Part shown: in pieces, positions 9,047-64,000 of the stretch
How positions within the stretch are numbered: position 1 is the first letter of the stretch
How the letters are laid out: every line of letters starts with the position of its first letter
Source of the DNA: Microcoleus sp.
GTDB lineage: Bacteria > Cyanobacteriota > Cyanobacteriia > Cyanobacteriales > Microcoleaceae
NCBI GenBank assembly: GCA_042408215.1
Contig: JAYFMW010000007.1
Coordinates: forward strand, 128,001-192,000
Reading direction: 5' to 3'
DNA: 64,000 bases
Translations under genes and position numbers: made by a program
The notes under the pieces: generated by a model
Database searches by the model: none
Told to the model about the DNA's origin: nothing
The model's input: only the letters and a program-made list of their open reading frames with translations

Positions 9047-9438
9047 GCTATAAACAGTATTGTTATGGAAATAGAATCTATTTTTAATTGTAACCTTTTG
9101 TTTCGGGCACGGACCTGCGATCGAGATCGGTTTGTCACTATTTCTGACCTTGCCTACTATAAATATTGCAATTTGTCAACCTAAAATTACCCGAATATTT
9201 AATGAGCTTAGCTGATATTACAAAGATTTTAGGCAAACTGTACAATCAAGATTCTAATTAAACAATCATAATCTTGATTGTTTGCAGACCATGTGCGATC
9301 GGGCCAAAGCAATTTTGAAATTAGGGCGGATTAGTGCGAGATTGCGACTAATCGAGTAGATGATTTTTTGAGTCAGGCTGACATTTAAAAGCTCCGCCCG
9401 GTGGGACAATATTAATATCCCCTCAAATTATCCCAACC

Positions 9439-10791
9439 ATGAATAAATGGCCGAAATTCCTCCCCCATCCTACATCATGGGCGAGGGGGTTTGCCTTAAG
9501 CATTAGTTTTTGGTTGATTGTTTCTGTACTGTCGCCCAATGCTTACTACTACTACTATGGATTTAGCAGGACCTATTGGTACATCATCAGGAACTCTGAC
9601 TTTGAAGCCATAATGACATTTGCTTGGTTATCCCAAATCTGGTTATTTGCTTTCTATCACTGGGGAGTAACTAAGGTTGCCGAGTGGGTGGAAATACGGA
9701 GGAACAATCAGCAACCACCTGAAATATCTGCGTGGCAACACGGTCGGGAAGGTATGATCGCATTTCTGACGCTACCTGCTGCGATTTTGATGGGAATTCC
9801 GGCGATCGCAATTTTTATGCTACCTGTCAGAAGCTCTTCGGGCGCGCTGATTGCTTTAATTCTAGGAACTGCGATCGCATCTAGTTACCTCTATTATTTC
9901 CGCTTTGGACAACTGCTTAAAAATATCCTTCAGCCTCTCTGGAATTTTGTTGTAAACCTTCTCAAAATATTTGAACTGTTGTTAGTTCCAGTAGTAACTG
10001 GGACTCCATTTTTTATGCTCACTATTGCGACGGCCCAAATCATACCGCAACAGTTATTACCACTAACAACCTTCTGCTTAGTTGTTTGCATATTTCTGAG
10101 CGGAATAGTCGGATATGCAGCCTTGCAATATTGGTCAGCGCATCTAGTTAATTGGGCCGCGACTTGGTGGCCGGCCCAATCTCCTGGTTACAGCCACCTC
10201 CAAGCTAGAAAAGCTTGGAAACACAACAAAACAGTAACTAAGCAATCTTTTATTCGACACTCAACCAGTTGGCATTTAGCAGCTAACGACGCTACCAACC
10301 TGATCTATTTAAACCTGATATCGCTCATGCTCGGTTTTTTCGGTTATTTGCTGTTTGGAGATTCATCGAAGTGGACACAAATAGAAGAAGAGATTTTAGG
10401 ATTGGTGGCGGTGCTAGCTTGGATTGCGCCGTGGTATTTCTGGGGGTGGCCTCGCGAAGTAGAAATTGCCATCGGTAAGCGGGAGGCTAAGAAAACGCGA
10501 TCGCCCAATTCTAACTCACCGGCTCCAAACCCCATAGAACAAGAGCTAAATCAACTCAAAGCCGCAAGTGGAATGACTCGGATGAGGCCTGTGAGGCGAT
10601 CGACCCAGCCAACTCCTGAAGTGCCGGAATGGTATGTGTTTCGCAGCGGTGAAGCCAAGGGGCCTTACACTAAATTACAATTGTGGGAGATTCAGGAAAT
10701 CACAGCCCGAACGAAAGTGCGGCGCGGGGAAGCCGAGTGGCTGCGCGCGGGTGAAATTCCAGAATTGGCGGCGTACCTCACTCAAAAATAA
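9439..10791 (+). CDS. Multi-pass membrane protein with C-terminal GYF_2 (DUF4339)-like domain
   Basis: Many hydrophobic segments; WYVFRSGEAKGPYT..L....I...TKVRR...W.RAGEIPEL. Confidence 0.8.
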   Translation: MNKWPKFLPHPTSWARGFALSISFWLIVSVLSPNAYYYYYGFSRTYWYIIRNSDFEAIMTFAWLSQIWLFAFYHWGVTKVAEWVEIRRNNQQPPEISAWQHGREGMIAFLTLPAAILMGIPAIAIFMLPVRSSSGALIALILGTAIASSYLYYFRFGQLLKNILQPLWNFVVNLLKIFELLLVPVVTGTPFFMLTIATAQIIPQQLLPLTTFCLVVCIFLSGIVGYAALQYWSAHLVNWAATWWPAQSPGYSHLQARKAWKHNKTVTKQSFIRHSTSWHLAANDATNLIYLNLISLMLGFFGYLLFGDSSKWTQIEEEILGLVAVLAWIAPWYFWGWPREVEIAIGKREAKKTRSPNSNSPAPNPIEQELNQLKAASGMTRMRPVRRSTQPTPEVPEWYVFRSGEAKGPYTKLQLWEIQEITARTKVRRGEAEWLRAGEIPELAAYLTQK

Positions 10792-14098: not shown

Positions 14099-14149
14099 AA
14101 CAATGTTGTGTCCCTACGAAATATCTGTTGTGTACCATTTTGTACCATA

Positions 14150-14365
14150 AAAATAAGGACACAACAATGTTGTGTCCCTACAGGAGATCTGTATTTCACC
14201 TGATATCAGATTAGATCTGTAGGGAAACGGCACTGTCGTGTCCGGGGCTTCGCGTTCATTGCCAGAAAAATCAGGACACAACAATGTTGTGTCCCTACAG
14301 GAGATCTGTATTTCACCTGATATCAGATTAGATCTGTAGGGAAACGGCACTGTCGTGTCCGGGGT
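14150..14365. repeat. Two tandem about 117-bp REP-like doublets
   Basis: aggacacaacaatgttgtgtccctac ... gtagggaaacggcactgtcgtgtcc repeated twice. Confidence 0.85.
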
Positions 14366-14376
14366 TTCTGCTATTC

Positions 14377-15989: not shown

Positions 15990-16619
15990 CAAGATCTAGA
16001 ATCCTGAGAAATCAGAATGATTCATGTATCACCCTCTTGACTCTGTGTTCTCTGCGCCCTCTGCGGTTAAAACATTGCAGTAAAATAGGAATTGAGCAAA
16101 GATCTAGAATCCTGAGAAATCAGAATGATTCATGTATCACCCTCTTGACTCTGTGTTCTCTGCGCCCTCTGCGGTTAAAACATTCCGGTAAAATAGGAAT
16201 CGATCAAAATATAGAATCCTGAGAAATCAGAATGATTCATGTATCACCCTCTTGACTCTGTGTTCTCTGCGCCCTCTGCGGTTAAAACATTGCAGTAAAA
16301 TAGGAATCGATCAAAATATAGAATCCTGAGAAATCAGAATGATTCATGTATCACCCTCTTGACTCTGTGTTCTCTGCGCCCTCTGCGGTTAAAACATTCC
16401 AGTAAAATAGGAATCGATCAAAATATAGAATCCTGAGAAATCAGAATGATTCATGTATCACCCTCTTGACTCTGTGTTCTCTGCGCCCTCTGCGGTTAAA
16501 ACATTCCAGTAAAATAGGAATCGATCAAAATATAGAATCCTGAGAAATCAGAATGATTCATGTATCACCCTCTTGACTCTGTGTTCTCTGCGCCCTCTGC
16601 GGTTAAAACATTCCGGTAC
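15990..16619. repeat. 107/108-bp tandem array, about 6 copies
   Basis: agaatcctgagaaatcag starts at 15998, 16106, 16213, 16320, 16427, 16534. Confidence 0.97.
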
Positions 16620-16748
16620 AAATCGGTTTCTCGTAATTCTGGAATTTGAGGCGAAGATGAGAACAAAAAACCGGGTTTTTCAGATTAATTCCTTAGCCAA
16701 AAACCCGGTTTCTCATGGTAATTGCTTTTTTTTCCTGACCAACAAACT

Positions 16749-47898: not shown

Positions 47899-48903
47899 AT
47901 GACCAGTAAGCCGGATCGCGTGGTTTTAATTGGCGTTGCTGGAGACTCCGGGTGCGGAAAATCTACCTTTTTGCGCCGATTGACAGATTTGTTCGGGGAA
48001 GATTTCGTTACCGTCATCTGCCTTGACGACTATCATTGTCTCGATCGCAAACAGCGCAAAGAAACAGGAATTACCGCCCTTGACCCCAGAGCGAACAATT
48101 TCGACCTGATGTACGAGCAGATGAAAGCCCTCAAAGAAGGTCGGGGAATAGACAAGCCGATTTACAACCACGAAACCGGTCTGCTCGATCCTCCTGAGCG
48201 GGTAGAGCCGAATCATGTGATTGTGATTGAGGGATTGCACCCCCTTTACGACGAGCGAGTGCGATCGCTCCTCGACTTCAGCGTCTACCTAGACATCAGC
48301 GACGAAGTAAAAATTGCTTGGAAAATCCAGCGCGACATGGCGGAACGGGGCCACCGTTACGAAGACGTGCTGTTTGCGATCAACGCTCGCAAACCAGACT
48401 TTACGGCTTACATCGACCCGCAAAAGCAATATGCTGATGTGGTAATTCAAGTATTGCCGACCAATTTAATTAAGGATGACAAAGAGCGGAAGGTTCTGCG
48501 CGTGCAGATGATCCAGCGCGAAGGCATCGCCAACTTTGAGCCCGCATATTTGTTTGACGAAGGTTCAACAATCAACTGGGTGCCTTGCGGCCGCAAACTG
48601 ACTTGTTCCTATCCAGGAATTAAGATGTATTACGGGCCTGACGCTTTCTACGGCCACGAAGTCTCGATTTTGGAAGTAGACGGCCAGTTTGAAAATCTCG
48701 AAGAAGTTATTTACATTGAAAACCATTTGAGCAAGACTTCTGCGAAGTATCAAGGCGAGTTGACTCACCTATTGCTTCAGCACCGTGAATATCCTGGTTC
48801 TAATAATGGAACTGGTTTGTTCCAAGTGTTAGTCGGATTGAAGATGCGGGCGACTTACGAGAAGTTGACTGCAAAAGAAGCGAAAGTGGCTGTTAGTGTT
48901 TAG
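47899..48903 (+). CDS. prk: Phosphoribulokinase
   Basis: GDSGCGKST, ICLDDYH, KIQRDMAERGH, PCGRKLTCSYPG. Confidence 0.98.
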   Translation: MTSKPDRVVLIGVAGDSGCGKSTFLRRLTDLFGEDFVTVICLDDYHCLDRKQRKETGITALDPRANNFDLMYEQMKALKEGRGIDKPIYNHETGLLDPPERVEPNHVIVIEGLHPLYDERVRSLLDFSVYLDISDEVKIAWKIQRDMAERGHRYEDVLFAINARKPDFTAYIDPQKQYADVVIQVLPTNLIKDDKERKVLRVQMIQREGIANFEPAYLFDEGSTINWVPCGRKLTCSYPGIKMYYGPDAFYGHEVSILEVDGQFENLEEVIYIENHLSKTSAKYQGELTHLLLQHREYPGSNNGTGLFQVLVGLKMRATYEKLTAKEAKVAVSV

Positions 48904-48952: not shown

Positions 48953-49182
48953 GGAGAAATGAACCGCTCCAGCGCCAGAGGGCGCAGAGAAGAGTTATAC
49001 CAATTTAATGGGTCGTTGCATATATCTCGATCCCCCTCGCATCCCCCTTAATAAGGGAGTAGGGTGTGAGTAGGGGGTGACGAAAGAGCAGAATCTTGTT
49101 CCACACCCCCTACTCCCCTACTCCCCTTATTAAGGGGGGTTAGGGGGGATCAGATTCTATGCAGCCTCATAAAAAACTGGTA

Positions 49183-50379
49183 TTAGGAGAGGATGTTTGA
49201 AGGTAGAGAGGTTAAGAAGGTTTTTCCGGCTTGATTTAGGTCGCTATTTAGGGAAAAGGTTAGACTGCGAACTTGGATATCGTCATTTTTTATGTTGAGT
49301 GGCTGTTGGAGGTTTTGCGGGTAGATGAGAATTGCATTTTGGCAGTTTAACGCATTGGCGTAGGCGACTATTTGATGAATGTCATTATTGGCTACTTTAT
49401 CGGGAGCTTTGTATTTTGTATCGAGGACATAGTGGACTTTTTTTGTTGCAATATCGCAGAGGAGTAAGTCAATCCGATCGGAATAATTTTGGTCATGTCT
49501 GACTCGGTGTTGTTGTTTGACAAAAAAGCCTTTTGGTGTATTTGCGTTGAGCCATTCAGCGACAAATTGTTCATATAAATTGGCCATGTTTATCAGAAAA
49601 GGGAGCATTTCGCGATCGCCTGTTTCGTGACTTGGCCCTGTATTCTCCAGAAAGAAGCGACATAAGGCGTGTAAAAGTTGATAATCTTGATTTAAACGGT
49701 GATAATTTCTATCAATACAAGCTTGTGCTGTAAAAGATTTTATGGTAACAACTCCTTGGAGTGTGTGAAAGGCTTTTCGCACCGTCGATGAGACTGATTC
49801 GCCACACAAACCGCTACGGCCAATTATGAATAGTGTCCAAGCCAGAATTTGATTATCTTCGATATCGCCTGTTTGTTCGTTGTAGTGACATTTTAGTTTA
49901 ACATCCCAAGGTTTTTGAAGAGCCGACCGCAAATCGACGCGGCCGCGAATGTAGGCGAGTCTTTCTGTTTTGGATAAGTAATCGCGATATAATCCTTTGC
50001 GACAGCGTTCGAGAATTTTTTGGGCAAGAATGTTAGCTAATCTTTCATAGGCTTGTTCTAAAAATTGGCACTGAATCTGTCCTTGGGGAAATTTTATCTT
50101 AAGTTTGTAGGCATATTCAAGCATTCCGAAGAAGTTGTTTATGGGAACCTTTGGGCGGATGAAAATGTGAAATTCTGGAGTAATTGGAATCTTGCCAACT
50201 ATGCCTTTAGATGTTAATTTCCATTTATTGTTTGTGGTAAAATCGGGACGTTTTATCTCTATTTCTTTGGCATAATTTTGGTGTATTTTCTGTCCTACTG
50301 ATTCGGGAATAAAATCTCGATCAAAGGTTGCTGATTGATATTCGATGAGTTTGATAATTCGGGGTGATTCTGGTTTCAT
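49183..50379 (-). CDS. mcrC: McrC-family restriction endonuclease subunit
   Basis: IRPKVP, IRGRVD, NMANLYEQFV, RID...VLDTKYK, DIHQIVAYA. Confidence 0.9.
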   Translation of the reverse strand: MKPESPRIIKLIEYQSATFDRDFIPESVGQKIHQNYAKEIEIKRPDFTTNNKWKLTSKGIVGKIPITPEFHIFIRPKVPINNFFGMLEYAYKLKIKFPQGQIQCQFLEQAYERLANILAQKILERCRKGLYRDYLSKTERLAYIRGRVDLRSALQKPWDVKLKCHYNEQTGDIEDNQILAWTLFIIGRSGLCGESVSSTVRKAFHTLQGVVTIKSFTAQACIDRNYHRLNQDYQLLHALCRFFLENTGPSHETGDREMLPFLINMANLYEQFVAEWLNANTPKGFFVKQQHRVRHDQNYSDRIDLLLCDIATKKVHYVLDTKYKAPDKVANNDIHQIVAYANALNCQNAILIYPQNLQQPLNIKNDDIQVRSLTFSLNSDLNQAGKTFLTSLPSNILS

Positions 50380-50386
50380 AAGATGA

Positions 50387-52033
50387 TCACTTGCTCAATT
50401 CGTCTTTGATTTTATCCCAGAGAAAATCATCCATTTTTTCCTGATTATCAAAGAAGTATTCTTCGAGGTATGGCTCAATTTCCATTTGCCAAATATCTTG
50501 GATATCTTCAACTAAGGTTTTTGTCAAAAAGAAGGAGATGCCTAGTTCATAGTGTTTGTTGTTAATTGCCCGATTGACATCTTCTAGAATACCAATTAAT
50601 TTATCAACTAGAAAACCTGTTTCCTCTCTCTGGTGATACTGTCGCAGGACTTCATAGTTGGGATAGATGGGGATGAATGCGAAGCGGCGACGGAGTGCGT
50701 TATCGACTAAGGCAATAGAGCGGTCTGCGGTGTTCATTGTGCCGATGATGCGGACATTTGTAGGGATTCTGAATCGTTTGCCGCTGGCTAGTGTAATAAA
50801 GCGTTCAGTGTCTTGTCGGTCATCTAGGAGATACATTAACTCGCCAAAGACTTGAGAGAGATTGGCGCGATTAATTTCATCAATAATGAGAACGCAAGTA
50901 TCTTGACAAGACTCAGCTTTTGTGCAAAAATCGAGGAATCTACCGGGAACTATGGGATAGGTCAATTGGTCATTTTGACTCTGCGGCCGGATGCCTTGAA
51001 TAAAGTCTTCATAAGTATAAGCTGGGTGAAATTGGATTATGTCTGAGAAACCGTCACCGCCACCGATTAAGTGTTTGGCTAGTTTTTGAGCAAGGAAGGT
51101 TTTTCCGGTTCCGGGTGGGCCTTGGATGATGGTTTGGCCTTTGCGGTTAATGGTGCGTATCCAGCCGTTAATTTCAGATGTTTGAAAACCTGTTATTTCA
51201 GAAATTTCTTTGATATCATACTCTCGATTAAATTCTTTCTCATAGATTGAAAAGTATTGCGCGATCAGAGGTGAATCCTTATCCTCCAGATAGGAACACA
51301 AAAAAAATAATGGAAATACTTTTTTAAATGTTTGTGTTATCATGTGAATTAACTGTTGAGCAGAATATCCTAATACTTTTTCTGCTTCAAGCGATCTAGC
51401 AACCTGAATATTAGTAATTTTATATTTTTCAAGTTCTGGTGTTTGTTCGCCAACCAAAGAGATAATACTTTCTAATAATTCATAAATACATTTTTGAGAT
51501 TTCATTATTATCATACGATATTCATGCACAGGGGAAGTAGAACGAATTATTTGCTGAGTTAAATAGCAATGATATTGATTGGGAAGGTTATAACGTTTAA
51601 GGCTATCGATTGCCAATGGGTTATTTATATAATTGCTTTCATAATTATCTATAATACAATCAATATCGTTAAATTCTGCACAGAAACCAAAAGTTAAGTC
51701 TTGGTTGTCAAATCTTAGCATTAAGTAAGCATTCTCTCTATAATTGATATCTTCACAACCAAAAGATATACTGTAAGCTATTGATTGTAAACCTTTTGTT
51801 TCAACGATCGAGCCAAGTTGCTCCCACTTGATATTTATATATTTTTTGATAAAATCAGGTAACAGATATTCCACCTGGATTAAAATATCCTTTAATGGAT
51901 TTTCAACATATTTTAAGAAATCTTTTTTGTGTGCCATGTAAAAATCTGAGCTTGGGTTTTCATAAAATTGTGCCAATAACCTAAATGTGTCTGCTGAAAA
52001 AGGACAGTCAGGATGTACAAAAACTTTTTCCAT
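50387..52033 (-). CDS. mcrB: McrB-family AAA+ GTPase
   Basis: GPPGTGKT, QFHPAYTYEDF, IIDEINRAN, GTMNTADRS, ALRRRF. Confidence 0.93.
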   Translation of the reverse strand: MEKVFVHPDCPFSADTFRLLAQFYENPSSDFYMAHKKDFLKYVENPLKDILIQVEYLLPDFIKKYINIKWEQLGSIVETKGLQSIAYSISFGCEDINYRENAYLMLRFDNQDLTFGFCAEFNDIDCIIDNYESNYINNPLAIDSLKRYNLPNQYHCYLTQQIIRSTSPVHEYRMIIMKSQKCIYELLESIISLVGEQTPELEKYKITNIQVARSLEAEKVLGYSAQQLIHMITQTFKKVFPLFFLCSYLEDKDSPLIAQYFSIYEKEFNREYDIKEISEITGFQTSEINGWIRTINRKGQTIIQGPPGTGKTFLAQKLAKHLIGGGDGFSDIIQFHPAYTYEDFIQGIRPQSQNDQLTYPIVPGRFLDFCTKAESCQDTCVLIIDEINRANLSQVFGELMYLLDDRQDTERFITLASGKRFRIPTNVRIIGTMNTADRSIALVDNALRRRFAFIPIYPNYEVLRQYHQREETGFLVDKLIGILEDVNRAINNKHYELGISFFLTKTLVEDIQDIWQMEIEPYLEEYFFDNQEKMDDFLWDKIKDELSK

Positions 52034-52425: not shown

Positions 52426-52656
52426 AACTGCTTGGAGGTTCCAGTAATTTACTTCTTCCCAGTAGAGATGATCTACTTCTTCCCACTTCTTCCTACTTCT
52501 TCCTTCGTGTCCTTCGCGTCTTCGCGGTTCAATAATACTAATCCCAACCGTGCCCGGAAAAATCAAACTTGTGTCAAAAGCACCTAAACGTGCTATATTC
52601 CCGTAAACCCTGAACAGCACTTTCAGGTATTGCAAATTTATCAACGAGTCAACTAA

Positions 52657-54309
52657 ATGCCCCCTACTTTCAAGAAACTAGCTGCCATTGCCATCTTTTT
52701 TGTAGCCATAAAAGTTTTAGTTGACTCCCCGTATTTCAAAGAAGCAAAGGATTCGATCGCACACCGAAACCAAGCAAGTGCCACCTTAGACACCGAAAGT
52801 CTGCGCCAAACAGCCACACACCAGCCCCCAGCAGCGCCTCAAACACCACCAGAACGCAACTTTGATATAGTAGTCTATGGCGACGAAGTACCGGGCATAT
52901 GTGCAGCTATTTGGGCCAAGAAAACCCTAGGCGCAAACGGAAAAGTAGCCGTAGTGCGATCGAACCATGAAAGCGCACCTTTAGGCGGCGTACTCACCCG
53001 TGGCGGTTTAGGTTACGTCGATTTAGATAAAATACCCGATTGGTATCGCCAACCCTACGCCCAATGCTTCCGGGAATTCCTAGACAAAGCGAAAGTTCCC
53101 GAATCTTGCTTAGAACCAAAAACGGCAGATAAAGCTCTCAAAGAGATGCTGTCAGAAGCCGATGTTAAAGTTATTTCTAACTCAACACTCACTCCTCACG
53201 TAGTCGATCGTAAAATTGAATATGCCGAAGTAAAAGACAGCAATGTCAAAATTAAAGCTAACTCTTACATTGACGTAACTCAAGACGCCGAACTAGCAAG
53301 AAAAGCCGGATTATCCTATTATACAGGATATGAATCGCAAAATATCAAATCTAAAAATGAAACCTTAGCGATATCTATAGTCCCGACAATTACCGGCCTC
53401 ACGATGTCCGACCTCCGCAGAATAGAAGATGAGATTCTTTCCAACACACCTTTAGTAGAAAAGATTAAATATAGCATTGCCAAATATAAAGATGATGCGA
53501 GTGCAGAATTCTGGATGAGGAATTTCTGGAGCACGATTTATCAAGCCTACAGAGACGGCTACAATATCAGAAGTGTAGCCCTAGGAGCAGCCTATCATGT
53601 AGACAGAAATCTGCCCTTTACTCAAGACAAAGGCTTCTTTTTTGACAAGGCCAATATTTGCGTTCATCAAGATAATTCTCTGTCGTGGAACGGCTTTTTG
53701 TTTAAATATCAAGTTGACCAACTAATGAAGATGGAAGCTAACGACAGAAAGCCGACTCCTGAGATGCTGAAAGAAATGTCATTTCTGCAAGAGTGGCTGC
53801 AAAAAAAATCGGGTAAAGATGTGAGACTATTTATCCCGGATGAGGTTTATATCAGGCAAACTTTGAATATTCGCGATGTCGTAGAACCGCTGACTGGGAA
53901 GGAAATTATTAAAGGAGGAACAGTGCCCGAAAAGTCGATCGGCAGTTTTTCCTATGACTTTGATTTACGAGGCGGAGTCAAGGATTTGTCATCGAGAATT
54001 CCAGGATTGCCCGTGTATAATTTTGGCATAGAAAGTGCATTGGCTAGCAAAGTGAATAATTTGGCGATCGTCGGGCGATCCTCTGGATATGTCGGTATGG
54101 CTGTATCAGTCGGGCGAATTGCGACGGTGAATATTTATCAAGGACAAGGTGTGGGTGTGGCGGCCGGTTTGGCTAGCAAATTGGGAGTACCGCTGAATAC
54201 AATTACTTCGAGTAAAACGAGAGAAACTTTGGAGACTTTGACGGGGAAAACTACTTATTTATCTGGGAGAGATACGAGTTATGGGGTGGATTATCAGGAG
54301 GTGAAATAG
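52657..54309 (+). CDS. Secreted/anchored FAD-dependent oxidoreductase
   Basis: N-terminal hydrophobic helix; DIVVYG...GICAA, LGG.LT.GG, IDVTQDAELA..AG, NLAIVGR. Confidence 0.8.
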   Translation: MPPTFKKLAAIAIFFVAIKVLVDSPYFKEAKDSIAHRNQASATLDTESLRQTATHQPPAAPQTPPERNFDIVVYGDEVPGICAAIWAKKTLGANGKVAVVRSNHESAPLGGVLTRGGLGYVDLDKIPDWYRQPYAQCFREFLDKAKVPESCLEPKTADKALKEMLSEADVKVISNSTLTPHVVDRKIEYAEVKDSNVKIKANSYIDVTQDAELARKAGLSYYTGYESQNIKSKNETLAISIVPTITGLTMSDLRRIEDEILSNTPLVEKIKYSIAKYKDDASAEFWMRNFWSTIYQAYRDGYNIRSVALGAAYHVDRNLPFTQDKGFFFDKANICVHQDNSLSWNGFLFKYQVDQLMKMEANDRKPTPEMLKEMSFLQEWLQKKSGKDVRLFIPDEVYIRQTLNIRDVVEPLTGKEIIKGGTVPEKSIGSFSYDFDLRGGVKDLSSRIPGLPVYNFGIESALASKVNNLAIVGRSSGYVGMAVSVGRIATVNIYQGQGVGVAAGLASKLGVPLNTITSSKTRETLETLTGKTTYLSGRDTSYGVDYQEVK

Positions 54310-55404
54310 ATCTTAAGAGGATTTTACCGCAGAGAGCGCAGAGGGCGCAGAGAGGGGAGGGATGAAAGGTTTTTTTTACGACATCAAAAACCCTCCCAAA
54401 GCTCTTCCCTCTGCGTCCTCTGGCGCTGGAGCGGTTCAAAACTCTTCTCTTTATGAAGTGGATTATAAAGAAGTGAAATAGATCTTAAGAGGATTTTACC
54501 ACAGAGAGCGCAGAGAGCGCAGAGAGGGGAGGATTGAGAGGGTTTTTTACGACATCAAAAACCCTCCCAAAGCTCTTCCCTCTGCGTCCTCTGGCGCTGG
54601 AGCGGTTCAAAACTCTTCTCTTTATGAAGTGGATGATAAAGAAGTGAAATAGATCTTAAGAGGATTTTACCACAGAGAGCGCAGAGGGCGCAGAGAGGGG
54701 AGGGATGAAAGGTTTTTTTTACGACATCAAAAACCCTCCCAAAACTCTTCCCTCTGCGTCCTCTGGCGCTGGAGCGGTTCAAAACTCTTCTCTTTATGAA
54801 GTGGATTATAAAGAAGTGAAATAGATCTTAAGAGGATTTTACCGCAGAGAGCGCAGAGGGCGCAGAGAGGGGAGGGATGAAAGGTTTTTTTTACGACATC
54901 AAAAACCCTCCCAAAGCTCTTCCCTCTGCGTCCTCTGGCGCTGGAGCGGTTCAAAACTCTTCTCTTTATGAAGTGGATTATAAAGAAGTGAAATAGATCT
55001 TAAGAGGATTTTACCACAGAGAGCGCAGAGAGCGCAGAGAGGGGAGGATTGAGAGGGTTTTTTACGACATCAAAAACCCTCCCAAAGCTCTTCCCTCTGC
55101 GTCCTCTGGCGCTGGAGCGGTTCAAAACTCTTCTCTTTATGAAGTGGATTATAAAGAAGTGAAATAGATCTTAAGAGGATTTTACCACAGAGAGCGCAGA
55201 GGGCGCAGAGAGGGGAGGGATGAAAGGTTTTTTTTACGACATCAAAAACCCTCCCAAAACTCTTCCCTCTGCGTCCTCTGGCGCTGGAGCGGTTCAAAAC
55301 TCTTCTCTTTATGAAGTGGATTATAAAGAAGTGAAATAGATCTTAAGAGGATTTTACCACAGAGAGCGCAGAGGGCGCAGAGAGGGGAGGGTTGAGAGGG
55401 TTTG
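54279..55404. repeat. 171/172-bp tandem array, six full copies plus a partial seventh, ABC-ABC higher-order structure
   Basis: gtggat anchors at 54286, 54458, 54629, 54801, 54973, 55144, 55316. Confidence 0.97.
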
Positions 55405-55782
55405 TTAGGAGAGGATGAGGCGGCGGATTCCTTCTCTTAAAAAGCGGACATTAAAGTTGATGAGAAGGGCTAGAGGATAACCAGTCATTTTGAGGTAGGA
55501 GATAACTTGAGCTTCATGGATAGGAAGTAGAGTTTGCACTGACTTTAATTCAACAACGAGAGTCTTGGCAACCAGCATATCGTATCTGCCTTCCCCAACC
55601 AAAACACCTTTGTAAAGGACATTCACCGTAGGCTGAGGGTCAAAAGGAATTCCCCGGCGCGAGAGTTCTTCACGCAACGAATTCTCGTATACCGCTTCCA
55701 AAAACCCCGGCCCCAACTCCTTGTGAACCTCCATCGCCGCGCCAATCACAGCGTAACTCAATTCATTAAGATTCTCTGCCAA
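55405..55782 (-). CDS. GxxExxY protein (PD-(D/E)XK nuclease superfamily)
   Basis: VHKELGPGFLEAVYE, D.LV....VVELK, HEAQVISYLK, LLINF. Confidence 0.93.
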   Translation of the reverse strand: MAENLNELSYAVIGAAMEVHKELGPGFLEAVYENSLREELSRRGIPFDPQPTVNVLYKGVLVGEGRYDMLVAKTLVVELKSVQTLLPIHEAQVISYLKMTGYPLALLINFNVRFLREGIRRLILS

Positions 55783-55940
55783 CTCTCTTCTCTCCTTTTC
55801 TCAAACCAATAATCACAATCATAATCCAAAACCCTCCGAACACTCTTCCCTCTGCGCCCTCTGCGCCCTCTGCGGTTCAAACCTCTTCTCTTCCCTCACC
55901 TATGGCACAATCTTAATATAAAACCTCCACCCTCTCGCCA

Positions 55941-58718
55941 ATGACCGCAAACCTACCCCCCCAATACGACCCCAAAGCCACCGAAGCCAAATGGCAAAAA
56001 TACTGGGAAGATAACCAAACCTTCAAAGCTGACCCAGAACAAGGCGGCGAACCTTACTGTATCATCATCCCACCTCCCAACGTCACCGGCAGCCTCCACA
56101 TGGGCCACGCTTTCAACAACTCCCTCGTTGACGCACTCATCCGCTATCACCGCATGATTGGTGACAATACCCTCTGTCTCCCCGGAACTGACCACGCTAG
56201 CATCGCAGTTCAAACTATTCTCGAAAAGCAACTCAAAGCTGAAGGTAAAACTCGCGATGATTTAGGAAGAGAAAAGTTCTTGGAACGGGCCTGGAATTGG
56301 AAAGCTGAATCGGGCGGTGCTATTGTTAATCAATTGCAGCGTTTGGGTTTGTCTGCGGATTGGTCGCGGGAACGTTTTACGATGGATGAAGGTTTGTCTA
56401 AATCTGTTTTAGCTGCTTTTGTTCGACTCTACGAAGAAGGGATGATTTATCGTGGCAATTATTTAGTTAATTGGTGTCCAGCTAGTCAGTCTGCTGTCTC
56501 TGATTTGGAAGTAGAAAGTAAGGAAGTTGATGGGAATTTGTGGCACTTTCGCTATCCTTTATCTGACGGTAGCGGTTTTGTGGAGGTGGCGACTACTCGA
56601 CCGGAAACGATGTTGGGTGATACTGGGGTGGCGGTGAATCCCAATGACGATCGCTACAAGCATCTTATCGGTAAAACTCTGACTCTGCCAATTATGAATC
56701 GGGAAATTCCGATTTTTGCTGATGAATTAGTCGATCCAACTTTCGGAACTGGTTGTGTGAAAGTGACTCCAGCCCATGACCCGAATGATTTTGAGATGGG
56801 TAAGCGTCATAATTTGCCGTTTATCAATATCATGAATAAGGACGGCACTTTAAATGAAAATGCGGGTGAGTTTCAAGGACAAGACCGGTTTGTTGCTCGC
56901 AAAAATGTAATTAAGCGGCTAGATTCTGACGGGTTTTTGGTGAAAATAGAGGATTATAAACATACTGTTCCTTTTAGCGATCGCGGAAAAGTTCCGGTAG
57001 AACCCCTATTATCCACTCAGTGGTTTGTCAAAACTCGCCCGATGGCTGACAAGGCTTTGGAATTTCTCGACCAACACAATCAGCCGCAGTTTGTACCTTC
57101 TCGCTGGACTAAGGTTTATCGCGATTGGTTGGTGAAAATTAAAGATTGGTGCATTTCGCGGCAGTTGTGGTGGGGACATCAAATCCCGGCTTGGTATGCT
57201 GTTAGCGAAACCGGTGGCGAAATTACAGATCATACTCCTTTTGTGGTGGCCACAAATGAGGCGGCTGCTAGGGAAAAAGCTTTATCACAATTTGGAGAAA
57301 ATGTCAAGTTAGAACAAGACCCGGATGTTTTGGATACTTGGTTTTCGTCGGGACTTTGGCCGTTTTCGACGATGGGATGGCCGGAGGAAACTGCGGATTT
57401 GGCAAGGTATTATCCTAACAGTACGCTATCGACTGGTTTTGATATCATCTTTTTCTGGGTTGCTAGAATGACGATGATGGCGGGATATTTTACGGATAAA
57501 ATGCCGTTTGAAACTGTGTATATTCACGGTTTGATCTTGGATGAAAATGGTAAAAAACAATCTAAGTCGGCGGGAAATGGTATCGATCCGTTAGTTTTGA
57601 TTGATAAGTATGGTACTGATGCTTTGCGTTATTCGCTGATGCGGGAAACTGCTGGTGCGGGCCAAGATGTCCGTTTGGATTACAACCGGCAATCCCATGA
57701 GTCGGCGACGGTGGAAGCTTCCCGGAATTTCACTAATAAGTTGTGGAATGCTGCGCGGTTTGTGATGATGAATTTGGCGGGACAAACTCCGCAGCAATTG
57801 GGGAATCCTTACCCCCCCCAGCCCCCCGTAGGGGCGGTGCCCCCGTGCCCGCCCTCTAAGAGGGGGAGTGAAGAGGGGTTGGAATTGTGCGATCGCTGGA
57901 TTCTTTCTCGCTATTATCAAGTTGTACAGCAAAGTCGTAATGATTTTGAAAGTTACGCTTTGGGGGAAGCGGCGAAGGGACTTTATGAGTTTATCTGGGG
58001 CGATTTTTGTGACTGGTATATTGAGTTAGTCAAGTCTCGCTTACAACAGGATGCTGAACCTAATTCTAAGAAAGCGGCACAGCAAACTTTTGCTTTTGTT
58101 TTGGAAGGTATTCTGAAACTTTTGCATCCTTTTATGCCGCACATTACTGAGGAAATTTGGCACACTCTGACTCAAAAAGGTGAGGATGAATGTCTGGCTT
58201 TGCAAGCTTATCCTGAAGCGGATATATCGCTGATTGCTCCTGATTTAGAACAGCAGTTTGAGTTGTTATTTGGCACGATTCGGACTATTCGCAATTTGCG
58301 GGCTGATACTGATATTAAGCCGGGAGTTAAGGTGACGGCGTTTTTGCAAAGCGAAAGCGCAAAAGAACGCGAAATTATCTCAAATGGAGCCATTTACATT
58401 AAAGATTTGGCTAGGGTGGAAAATCTGACGATTACTGCTAGTTTGGATGCAGATTTAGGACAGACAATTGCTGGGGTTGTGGGTACTGTGCAAGTATTGA
58501 TTCCTCTGGCTGGGGTGGTTGATCTGGTGGCTTTGCGTGCTAAATTGGAGAAAAAATTGGGCAAGGTTGAAGGGGAAATTAAGCATACTTCGGCGCGTTT
58601 GGCGAATCAGAAGTTTGTGGAAAAAGCTGACCCGGAAGTTGTTCAGGTGGCGCGGGATGGTTTGGCGGAGGCGGAGAAACAGGCGGAAATTTTGCGCGAT
58701 CGACTAAAGTTGTTTTAA
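55941..58718 (+). CDS. valS: Valine--tRNA ligase
   Basis: [37 protein letters not shown]. Confidence 0.98.
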
Positions 58719-58984
58719 GGAGTCATTAGTCCTTAGTCATTTGTCATTAGTCAGTCAAGCTGTAGGGTGCGTGAGGGCGAAAAATCTGGGAATCCCAATC
58801 AAAATATTGGCTCTCACGCACCGCAGGCGCGATCGACTAAAGTTGTTTTAAGGAGTCATTAGTCCTTAGTCATTTGTCATTAGTCAGTCAAGCTGTAGGG
58901 TGCGTGAGGGCGAAAAATCTGGGAATCCCAATGAAGATATGGACTCTCACGCACCGCAGGCGCGATCGACTAAAGTTGTTTTAA
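58694..58984. repeat. About 133-bp tandem duplication containing the valS 3' end
   Basis: gcgcgatcgactaaagttgttttaa occurs three times (near 58694, 58827, 58960). Confidence 0.9.
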
Positions 58985-62764: not shown

Positions 62765-64000
62765 GGACTCAAGCGCGGGGTACTCAGAAACCGGGTTTTT
62801 GCGACAAAACTTCGTTACACCGTGCAGAAACCCAAAAAAACCCGGTTTCTCGACTCAAGCGCGAGGTACTCAGAAACCGGGTTTTTGCCAGAAAACTTCG
62901 TTACACCGTGCAGAAACCCAAAAAAACCCGGTTTCTTGACTCACCCGCGAGGTATCCAGAAACCGATCCCCCTAAATCCCCCTTAAGAAGGGGAGTAGGG
63001 GTTGACTTTGATCGGAATCTTGTCCCCACCCTTATTAAGGGGGGTTAGGGGGGATCAGATTCTATGCAGCCTCATAAAAACTGCGTTACACCGTGCAGAA
63101 ACGCGAAAAAACCCGGTTTCTTGACTCACGCGCGAGGTACTCAGAAACCGGGTTTTTGCCAGAAAACTTGTTACACCGTGCAGAAACCCAAAAAAACCCG
63201 GTTTCTCGACTCAAGCGCGGGGTACTCAGAAACCGGGTTTTTGCGAGAAAACTGCGTTACACCATGCAGAAACGCGAAAAAACCCGGTTTCTTGACTCAA
63301 GCGCGGGGTATCCAGAAACCGATCCCCCTAAATCCCCCTTAAGAAGGGGGACTTTGATCGGAATCTTGTCCCACCCCCTACTCCCCTTATTAAGGGGGGT
63401 TAGGGGGGATCAGATTCTATGCAGCCTCATAAAAACTTCGTTACACCGTGCAGAAACCCCAAAAAAACCCGGTTTCTTGACTCACCCACGAGGTATCCAG
63501 AAACCGGGTTTTTGCCAGAAAACTTCGTTACACCGTGCAGAAACCCAAAAAAACCCGGTTTCTTGACTCACCCGCGAGGTATCCAGAAACCGATCCCCCT
63601 AAATCCCCCTTAAGAAGGGGGACTTTGATCGGAATCTTGTCCCACACCCCCTACTCCCCTACTCCCCTTATTAAGGGGGGTTAGGGGGGATCAGATTCTA
63701 TGCAGCCTCATAAAAACTTCGTTACACCGTGCAGAAACCCAAAAAAACCCGGTTTCTCGACTCAAGCGCGGGGTACTCAGAAACCGGGTTTTTGCGAGAA
63801 AACTGCGTTACACAATGCAGAAACCCAAAAAAACCCGGTTTCTCGACTCACCCGCGAGGTATCCAGAAACCGATCCCCCTAAATCCCCCTTAAGAAGGGG
63901 TTGACTTTGATCGGAATCTTGTCCCACACCCCCTACTCCCCTACTCCCCTTATTAAGGGGGGTTAGGGGGGATCAGATTCTATGCAGCCTCATAAAAACT
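62765..64000. repeat. Composite tandem array of about 78-bp agaaaccgggttt doublets and ccccctaaatcccccttaag elements; runs off window end
   Basis: Repeated cagaaaccgggtttttg..aaaacccggtttct units; four gatccccctaaat...ggggatcagattctatgcagcctcat blocks. Confidence 0.95.

Follow-up and report, generated by a model that had tools for sequence, protein, structure and literature searches.

A predicted GxxExxY nuclease gene of Microcoleus, its inverted repeat arms and its empty cassette copies

Partnerships between a small gene and a family of short repeats are best described for the REP-associated tyrosine transposases (RAYTs), which are reported as single-copy genes of mostly vertical inheritance, each with its own class of repetitive extragenic palindromes (REPs) and an adjacent repeat cluster (PMC3116915, PMC5581495). 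In a second arrangement, the TIRtrons, Y1 genes are accompanied by families of terminal inverted repeats (TIRs) (PMC3733652). The family PF13366, to which GxxExxY proteins belong, is listed as being of unknown function with many transfers (PMC3424549), and the accessible text of one preprint mentions GxxExxY only in passing (10.1101/2021.01.26.428298). Here we describe a GxxExxY gene in a 64,000-nucleotide stretch of Microcoleus sp. (GCA_042408215.1, contig JAYFMW010000007.1, positions 128,001 to 192,000; hereafter the window). The gene lies between inverted copies of a genome-wide repeat, the arms, and beside six tandem empty copies of its own cassette. In the following, G000 denotes the genome carrying the window, C numbers its contigs, L numbers homologous loci and G numbers genomes.

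As far as the available parts of that literature describe them, the cassette shares with REPtrons, the pairings of RAYT and REP, a small, single-copy and mainly vertically inherited gene, a genome-abundant and extragenic flanking repeat, adjoining repeat clusters and one repeat class per paralogue. However, the enzyme is of PD-(D/E)XK rather than HUH Y1 type, and the locus is outside the 20 Y1_Tnp matches of G000. Furthermore, the arm, a triple 9-mer, is neither palindromic nor tagged with GTAG, and it occurs mostly singly and not in the inverted doublets called REPINs. The cassette would work like a REPtron but is no member of that group, from which it differs in enzyme class, palindrome and doublet; the RAYT/REP analogy drawn in the original prediction fits the architecture. 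With TIRtrons and their TIRYT genes it has in common, in the portions of PMC3733652 available, a gene between terminal inverted repeats whose families are moderately abundant and occur as dimers or clusters, whereas TIRYTs are Y1 transposases and the GxxExxY protein is not. The accessible text of PMC3184786, PMC3542288 and PMC7015867 holds no description of this arm repeat. More generally, no description of repeats flanking GxxExxY genes was found in the literature, with supplements and most subscription papers outside the scope and with the arm possibly going under the name SDR.

The GxxExxY cassette and its empty copies

The GxxExxY gene occupies positions 55405–55782 on the minus strand and encodes 125 amino acids. 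The protein matched TIGR04256 with 137 bits (cut-off 35) and PF13366 with 138 bits (cut-off 22), PDDEXK_3 was its sole Pfam match, and the name-giving motif is present as GFLEAVY. Its predicted structure (pLDDT 97) is a minimal PD-(D/E)XK fold whose closest counterparts are lambda exonuclease, Cas4 and Hjc, at Foldseek E values of about 1e-3 and VIA Z scores of up to 7.7 (root-mean-square deviation 2.8–4.4, 92–101 residues aligned); no match stands out in these searches, and the fold lists exclude nothing. With nucleases of the Cas4, lambda exonuclease and Hjc type the predicted model shares the core fold and the D..ExK..QxxxY residues, whereas it has no accessory domain. The active-site residues D68, E78-x-K80 and Q92-x3-Y96 were intact in all 26 orthologues at the window locus, and at a dN/dS of 0.15 the protein is under purifying selection. 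The nearest named homologues are from Microcoleaceae (98% protein identity), and the family comprises at least 5,385 clusters at 50% identity (E up to 1e-10). A search by sequence gave no relative of solved structure.

One arm lies downstream, on the 3' side of the gene, at 55356–55382 (plus strand), and the other upstream, on the 5' side, at 55850–55876 (minus strand), inverted relative to the first. The flanks at 55345–55403 and 55829–55887 are 81% complementary over 59 nt, in agreement with the imperfect inversion originally predicted.

Between the gene for a flavin adenine dinucleotide (FAD)-dependent oxidoreductase (PF12831; 52657–54309, plus strand) and the GxxExxY gene, Tandem Repeats Finder reported an array at 54279–55403 with a period of 172, 6.6 copies and 95% matches. 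As predicted, six empty cassettes of 171/172 bp precede the gene (54279–55308, no strand assigned), with starts located at 54279, 54450, 54622, 54794, 54965 and 55137; a partial seventh copy is the gene's own left flank. Each unit consists of 31 oxidoreductase coding bases, 16 intergenic bases, a left arm with purine tail, an 8-base joint, and a right flank with a variant arm. The expected 45-bp oxidoreductase copy thus exists, but it combines the coding and the intergenic bases and is not coding throughout. In unit 1, the left arm (ACC and three 9-base units, followed by the purine tail) is found at 54326–54352 (plus strand), the joint TTACGACA at 54376–54383 (minus strand) and the right arm, in the variant form, at 54409–54435 (minus strand). 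This rare form also occurs at five other genome sites, making six separate sites when the units are counted as one.

Differences between units reach 14 bases; unit 2 is the same as unit 5 and unit 3 is one base away from unit 6, giving a 515-bp super-period. The word depth of unit contigs was 43.6 and 36.9 in two short-read runs, one of which is possibly the source sample, against 7–11 for the flanks, or approximately 4–5 times deeper. This raised depth fits several unit copies and gives no exact copy number, so that six is the assembly count. The same unit junction is shared by 10 of the 26 orthologous loci; L010, whose record is titled a complete genome, has it five times and L391 twice. The array is biological and no assembly artefact. 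Because G000 holds 328 tandem arrays of period 60–400 (at least five copies in 90, arms in only 22), local six-fold amplification is ordinary for this genome. The six-copy array is of little interest in itself beyond showing how empty copies form.

The predicted joint of about 10 bp between the two flanks is present but not foreign: read as a reverse complement, it spells the stop codon and the final codons found at the gene end in other Microcoleus alleles (L007, L009, L010, L018 and L022), and it differs from the resident allele. Since it reads as the gene end in those alleles and not in the resident one, the unit is a cassette minus its interior, derived from another GxxExxY allele. A second junction type, keeping approximately 25 bases of each open reading frame (ORF) end, was seen at the window locus in L006 and L017. 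After a second Microcoleus paralogue, which adjoins an amt-like gene, there are likewise one or two empty copies, in which both its first and its last codons are retained (L078, L080, L082). Given these further junctions, empty copies arose more than once, and the original view of the units as gene-less derivatives of the cassette agrees with the ORF ends kept at all of these junctions. An automated scan for ORF-end remnants found only 5 of 169 loci and missed cases visible by eye, so that the remnant claim rests on by-eye alignments. In some strains the unit stands on the oxidoreductase side and in others on the valS side, as would be expected from unequal recombination between repeated flanks.

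At least three arms occurred within 800 nt of the gene in 20 of 25 Microcoleus loci, 28/79 other cyanobacterial loci, 11/25 loci from the phylum of G271 (Chloroflexota, according to L054), 20/33 metagenome loci and 0/7 plasmid loci. As background, at least one arm was present in 482 of 3000 windows drawn at random from G000. Extra arms are enriched next to the gene.

Arms, genes and loci across genomes

To count as bracketed, a gene had to show a local inverted score of at least 30 within 150 nt on each side, and windows shifted by 600–800 nt served as controls. Among cyanobacterial homologues, inverted arms were found around 76 of the 80 close ones and 27 of the 30 taken phylum-wide (together 103/110), with controls of 3/309 and 0/118. 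Among the usable loci elsewhere, they bracketed 17 of 25 in the set from the phylum of G271 (31 loci in all), 3 of 7 in plasmid records of mixed phyla (8 in all) and 23 of 66 from metagenomes (80 in all), with controls of 2/99, 0/28 and 3/173; all controls were at 0–2%. The proposed survey of homologue flanks thus showed GxxExxY genes to be strongly enriched for inverted arms. Both arms were of the same flavour at 100 of 117 typed loci, including 75/86 in cyanobacteria (permutation mean 24) and 14/17 in metagenomes (permutation mean 10), and the two arms change sequence together. Paralogues within one genome bear different arm types, as do the four in G041. The loci L180, from Bacteroides, and L187 bear nearly the Microcoleus arm.

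Repeat abundance was compared with gene presence in two sets of related, hence non-independent, genomes, with search patterns taken from gene flanks. In the f5 set (26 genomes by five arm types, giving genome-type cells), at least 10 arm copies were present in 45/47 cells with the cognate gene vs 20/83 without. Cognate genes here include four broken ones (L353, L354, L298, L313) and the contig-edge L341, which was typed by protein score. Across 201 genomes, at least 10 ACC-type arms occurred in 27/41 with a strong GxxExxY match vs 7/160 without. Repeat abundance tracks the cognate gene, type by type, and the repeat is much rarer where the gene or the cognate paralogue is lacking, contrary to the outcome that would have spoken against the original prediction. 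In a protein tree of a quick version, arm labels cluster, but kin share labels, and no co-evolution is claimed from it.

In G000 itself, the arm core motif gave 587 matches vs 0–1 in three local shuffles, which speaks against chance. A 16-mer from the gene flank has 172 copies, and 330 full arms were counted, 282 of AGAG and 46 of GAAG flavour. Although ORFs cover 78% of the genome, 302 of the 330 arms lie outside simple ORF calls. The repeat is dispersed mainly as lone arms and not as the empty doublet: 228 of the 330 arms are isolated, and 213 of 238 clusters of the core motif are singlets. A single arm is non-palindromic, folds at about -5 kcal/mol and lacks a GTAG end. Sixty arm loci from two relatives yielded 31 rows syntenic with G000, in which the arm was present in 23, absent in 7 and variant in 1. 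In these rows no clean boundary or target duplication was readable between filled and empty sites, because the gaps have been rewritten by other repeats.

The window gene is the only intact arm-bracketed GxxExxY copy in G000. The GAAG paralogue (C17, about 9350–9740) carries an insertion after approximately 20 codons, and the remainder of that gene was not found; TnpB-like and IS110-like ORFs, labelled by reading rather than profile scan, follow this insertion. At the window locus, valS (55941–58718, plus strand), divergent from the GxxExxY gene, is a conserved neighbour of its clade across cyanobacterial genera; of 80 homologous loci, 51 have the gene beside it, in a range that takes in Microcoleus, Chamaesiphon, Scytonema and Nostoc. 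The gene is patchy in the genus, being full length in 30 of 79 genomes. The valS-side arm is intact in 22/26 carriers vs 0/33 non-carriers (33 of 38 readable), and in 24 of these 33 a RelE-like pair or its remnant stands in the gene's place beside a decayed arm. In L114 (680–1382) and most of the non-carrier loci L359–L388, the oxidoreductase-valS gap is taken up by a RelE/ParE-like toxin gene with a small gene upstream of it, next to a decayed arm.

Comparison of this gap in relatives, as suggested earlier, did reveal an arm-free empty site (L367, 111 bp vs 601–607 bp with the cassette), but no target-site duplication was seen at arm-free sites, where the empty alleles have diverged too far or have been overwritten by other repeats. 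Six aligned polymorphic alleles (L131, L148, L149, L158, L163, L166; L137 and L147 left out) likewise showed none. In L182 the cassette interrupts the fabD-fabG operon, an example of insertion inside a conserved operon. Homing with co-conversion was considered, as the gene looked less diverged than its neighbours; this was rejected as evidence because the gradient into valS and the oxidoreductase gene is equal in 37 non-carriers. The gene is conserved but not hopping. The claim of a currently mobile cassette was not supported: the gene is single-copy, its valS neighbour recurs across genera, and no target duplication or homing signal was found.

A proposed nuclease-repeat pair and its alternatives

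We favour a domesticated nuclease-repeat pair, in which the protein would bind its own arm type and nick DNA there, while host repair would spread and homogenise the arms; we judge this account about evenly poised between right and wrong. The association of gene and arms is established; the binding and cutting step is likely, considering the predicted fold and the type-specific abundance. The best reading of the architecture would be a RAYT/REP-like partnership built from unrelated parts. In the history envisaged, the cassette with short flanks would have been duplicated and its interior deleted once, in an ancestor or a donor with a different allele, after which ordinary unequal recombination could have altered the number of copies and shifted the unit to one side of the gene or the other. 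The protein would recognise its triple 9-mer arm and nick there. Repair from other arm-bearing sites, as is thought for RAYTs and REPs, would copy arms to new places and keep them uniform. The gene itself would be mostly inherited vertically, often lost and rarely relocated.

Several observations weigh against this account. Four-helix-bundle genes and DUF559 genes of G000 are bracketed likewise by other abundant repeats, in three of four cases each; since two other families show the layout with other repeats, it does not require this nuclease, which weakens the nuclease as the motor. Four-helix-bundle genes are not known to encode nucleases. A separate TIR carrier, which bears REPs and heptamers as well, encloses 54/282 of the AGAG arms and is a second route of arm spread besides a dedicated one. 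Arms are abundant in genomes where no gene was found (69 in G005, 147 in G062 and 48 in G171), and G000 keeps its 46 GAAG arms though the GAAG paralogue is broken. Outside cyanobacteria and the phylum of G271 the pattern is weaker, as the metagenome counts of bracketed and same-flavour loci given above illustrate. The link between gene and repeat is further weakened by the kinship of the genomes and the flank-derived patterns, the decayed arm of non-carriers may be one event, and filled and empty alleles yielded no clean boundary or target duplication.

Much of this fits the main alternative account, in which the protein is cargo and not motor: host slippage, gene conversion between inverted arms and carrier MITEs (miniature inverted-repeat transposable elements) would spread and homogenise the arms, and the nuclease would have an unrelated job. 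The shared layout of the other two families, the generic carrier around a share of the arms and the 328 tandem arrays of many repeat families are all in line with it, as are the 20 of 83 cells in which repeats persist though the gene is lacking and the 24 of 33 non-carriers in which a RelE-like pair next to a remnant arm takes the gene's place. It hardly explains, however, why a near-identical arm surrounds the gene in Microcoleus, in Bacteroides (L180) and in L187, why each paralogue has its own arm type, or why, for each type, abundance goes with its cognate gene. We regard it as a possibility to be taken seriously, though doubtful on balance.

An action of the arms as RNA seems improbable. 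Here, a long stem would close the transcript, the protein would bind or cut arm RNA, and dispersed arms would be regulatory transcript tags. An array transcribed into structured RNAs for the nuclease, the alternative offered in the original prediction, is conceivable. The gene-spanning stem (z -5.1) and the hairpin formed by the left and right arms of a unit (z -5.3) agree with this idea, but such folding is expected of any inverted repeat pair. The location of 302 of 330 arms outside called ORFs is compatible with it, and one metatranscriptome contig, from RNA data consisting of the assembled contigs of one run, reaches from arm to arm (55376–55877), which is not proof of transcription. Against it, most arms are isolated, a lone arm hardly folds, the closest folds are mostly DNases, and no Rfam family was found at the locus at gathering score, where only sub-threshold miRNA hairpins appeared. 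ORF-bearing 23S rRNA intervening sequences and four-helix-bundle (Avd-like) cassettes also hold a small ORF within pairing inverted arms. The present locus differs from the rRNA intervening sequences in lying in the oxidoreductase-valS gap and not in rRNA, in its protein fold, and in arms that form a dispersed repeat family.

Still less probable is an active insertion-sequence-like or homing element whose MITEs are the units. Terminal inverted arms with internal-deletion derivatives would suit such an element, as would the patchy gene, the arm-free site in L367 and insertions within conserved operons such as fabD-fabG. In the available parts of PMC3184786, MITEs with an autonomous parent, for example Nezha and ISNpu3, are likewise derived by internal deletion and retain the inverted ends of a parent that bears a gene. 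The cassette differs from such MITEs in that its parent is single-copy and its derivatives, instead of being dispersed, form a tandem row next to that parent; no target duplication was seen at its diverged or rewritten empty sites. Moreover, each genome holds a single copy of each type, the valS neighbourhood is kept across genera, and empty doublets are rare genome-wide. It also differs from a free-standing homing endonuclease, although patchy like one, in showing no carrier-specific co-conversion of flanks, the low-divergence gradient being the same in non-carriers. Finally, an assembly artefact, which could be suspected from the 515-bp super-period with two identical units and from the lack of any single piece spanning the array, is scarcely credible given the differences between units, the raised depth in two runs and the same junction in 10 of 26 other genomes.

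Returning to the domesticated pair, a broader form of it is tentative and rather unlikely: GxxExxY proteins would be dedicated, sequence-specific engines of their own 9-base repeats, a RAYT/REP-like system of independent origin from a restriction-enzyme fold, four-helix-bundle genes with heptamers and DUF559 genes with CCCCTT repeats would be parallel cases, and much of the so far unexplained intergenic repeat DNA of filamentous cyanobacteria would have a cognate single-copy gene.

Neighbouring repeats and genes, and implications

Four genes of the four-helix-bundle family (TIGR02436) were found in G000 at C8:179298, C6:1006991, C30:90869 and C29:27784 (L395–L398), each amid a different heptamer. 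Three are bracketed by inverted heptamer arrays; at the fourth, both flanks hold one and the same heptamer in direct orientation. Two of the three inverted-bracket heptamers are the commonest of G000 (16-mers with 594 and 1079 copies). DUF559 genes at C17:656263, C29:138494, C29:139291 and C8:184418 (L399–L402) are accompanied by inverted CCCCTT-AAGGGG copies, above threshold in three of four, and this family has 482 copies of a 16-mer. Nostoc reportedly carries SDR and STRR heptamer repeats, said to have been described by Elhai et al. in 2008 as very short, mobile-looking intergenic repeats nested in one another. We know of no link between these repeats and GxxExxY.

The TIR carrier is approximately 100 bp long (ATCAA.TCCGGTT..ATCGGAAT and its inverse), has 158 left ends in G000, for example at C10:62079–62407, and holds interchangeable cargo of nonamer arms, GTAG REPs or heptamer runs. 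Arms also form groups apart from any GxxExxY gene: a second window array (15990–16623, 107 bp × 5.9) has one arm per unit and no gene, inward-facing doublets occur in 10 copies at C8:273134–274513, and outward-facing doublets at C30:252157–252780, both without GxxExxY nearby. Single arms in the window comprise the rare variant at 48964, after the ORF at 47899–48903, and a GAAG-type arm at 52500–52530, ahead of the oxidoreductase gene. Tandem arrays of other families lie at 62766–64000, 58694–58984 and 14145–14368 (an 86-bp AAACCCGGTTT family and GTAGG-bearing units). McrC-like (PF10117) and McrB-like AAA_5 genes stand just upstream of the oxidoreductase gene (window 49183–52033). At the cassette locus PADLOC gave no match, and a promoter and terminator scan stayed at chance level.

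Many GxxExxY representatives (P0001–P0004 and similar) are tandem double-GxxExxY proteins of 240–295 amino acids. In many homologues (P0010, P0020, P0034, P0035, P0130 and loci L030–L083) the reading frame runs through the upstream arm, which is then called as the protein's N-terminus (MNRQDAK.., MNRRGAE..); annotated GxxExxY starts may therefore be repeat artefacts. Searches for viral homologues with a single protein confirmed none, and the alignment query had no usable conserved stretch.

With these findings, a very large family of proteins without assigned function gains a defined candidate substrate, and the natural cognate and non-cognate pairs, with up to five paralogues per genome and an own arm for each, ease the testing of specificity. 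A predicted nuclease of 125 residues with naturally varied 27-bp candidate targets could also appeal to tool developers. That heptamer and CCCCTT repeats surround small genes of their own bears on the old question of where the short repeats of cyanobacteria come from. Taken with the GxxExxY arms, the results suggest that a gene-plus-repeat partnership of the RAYT/REP type may have evolved more than once, from unrelated enzymes.

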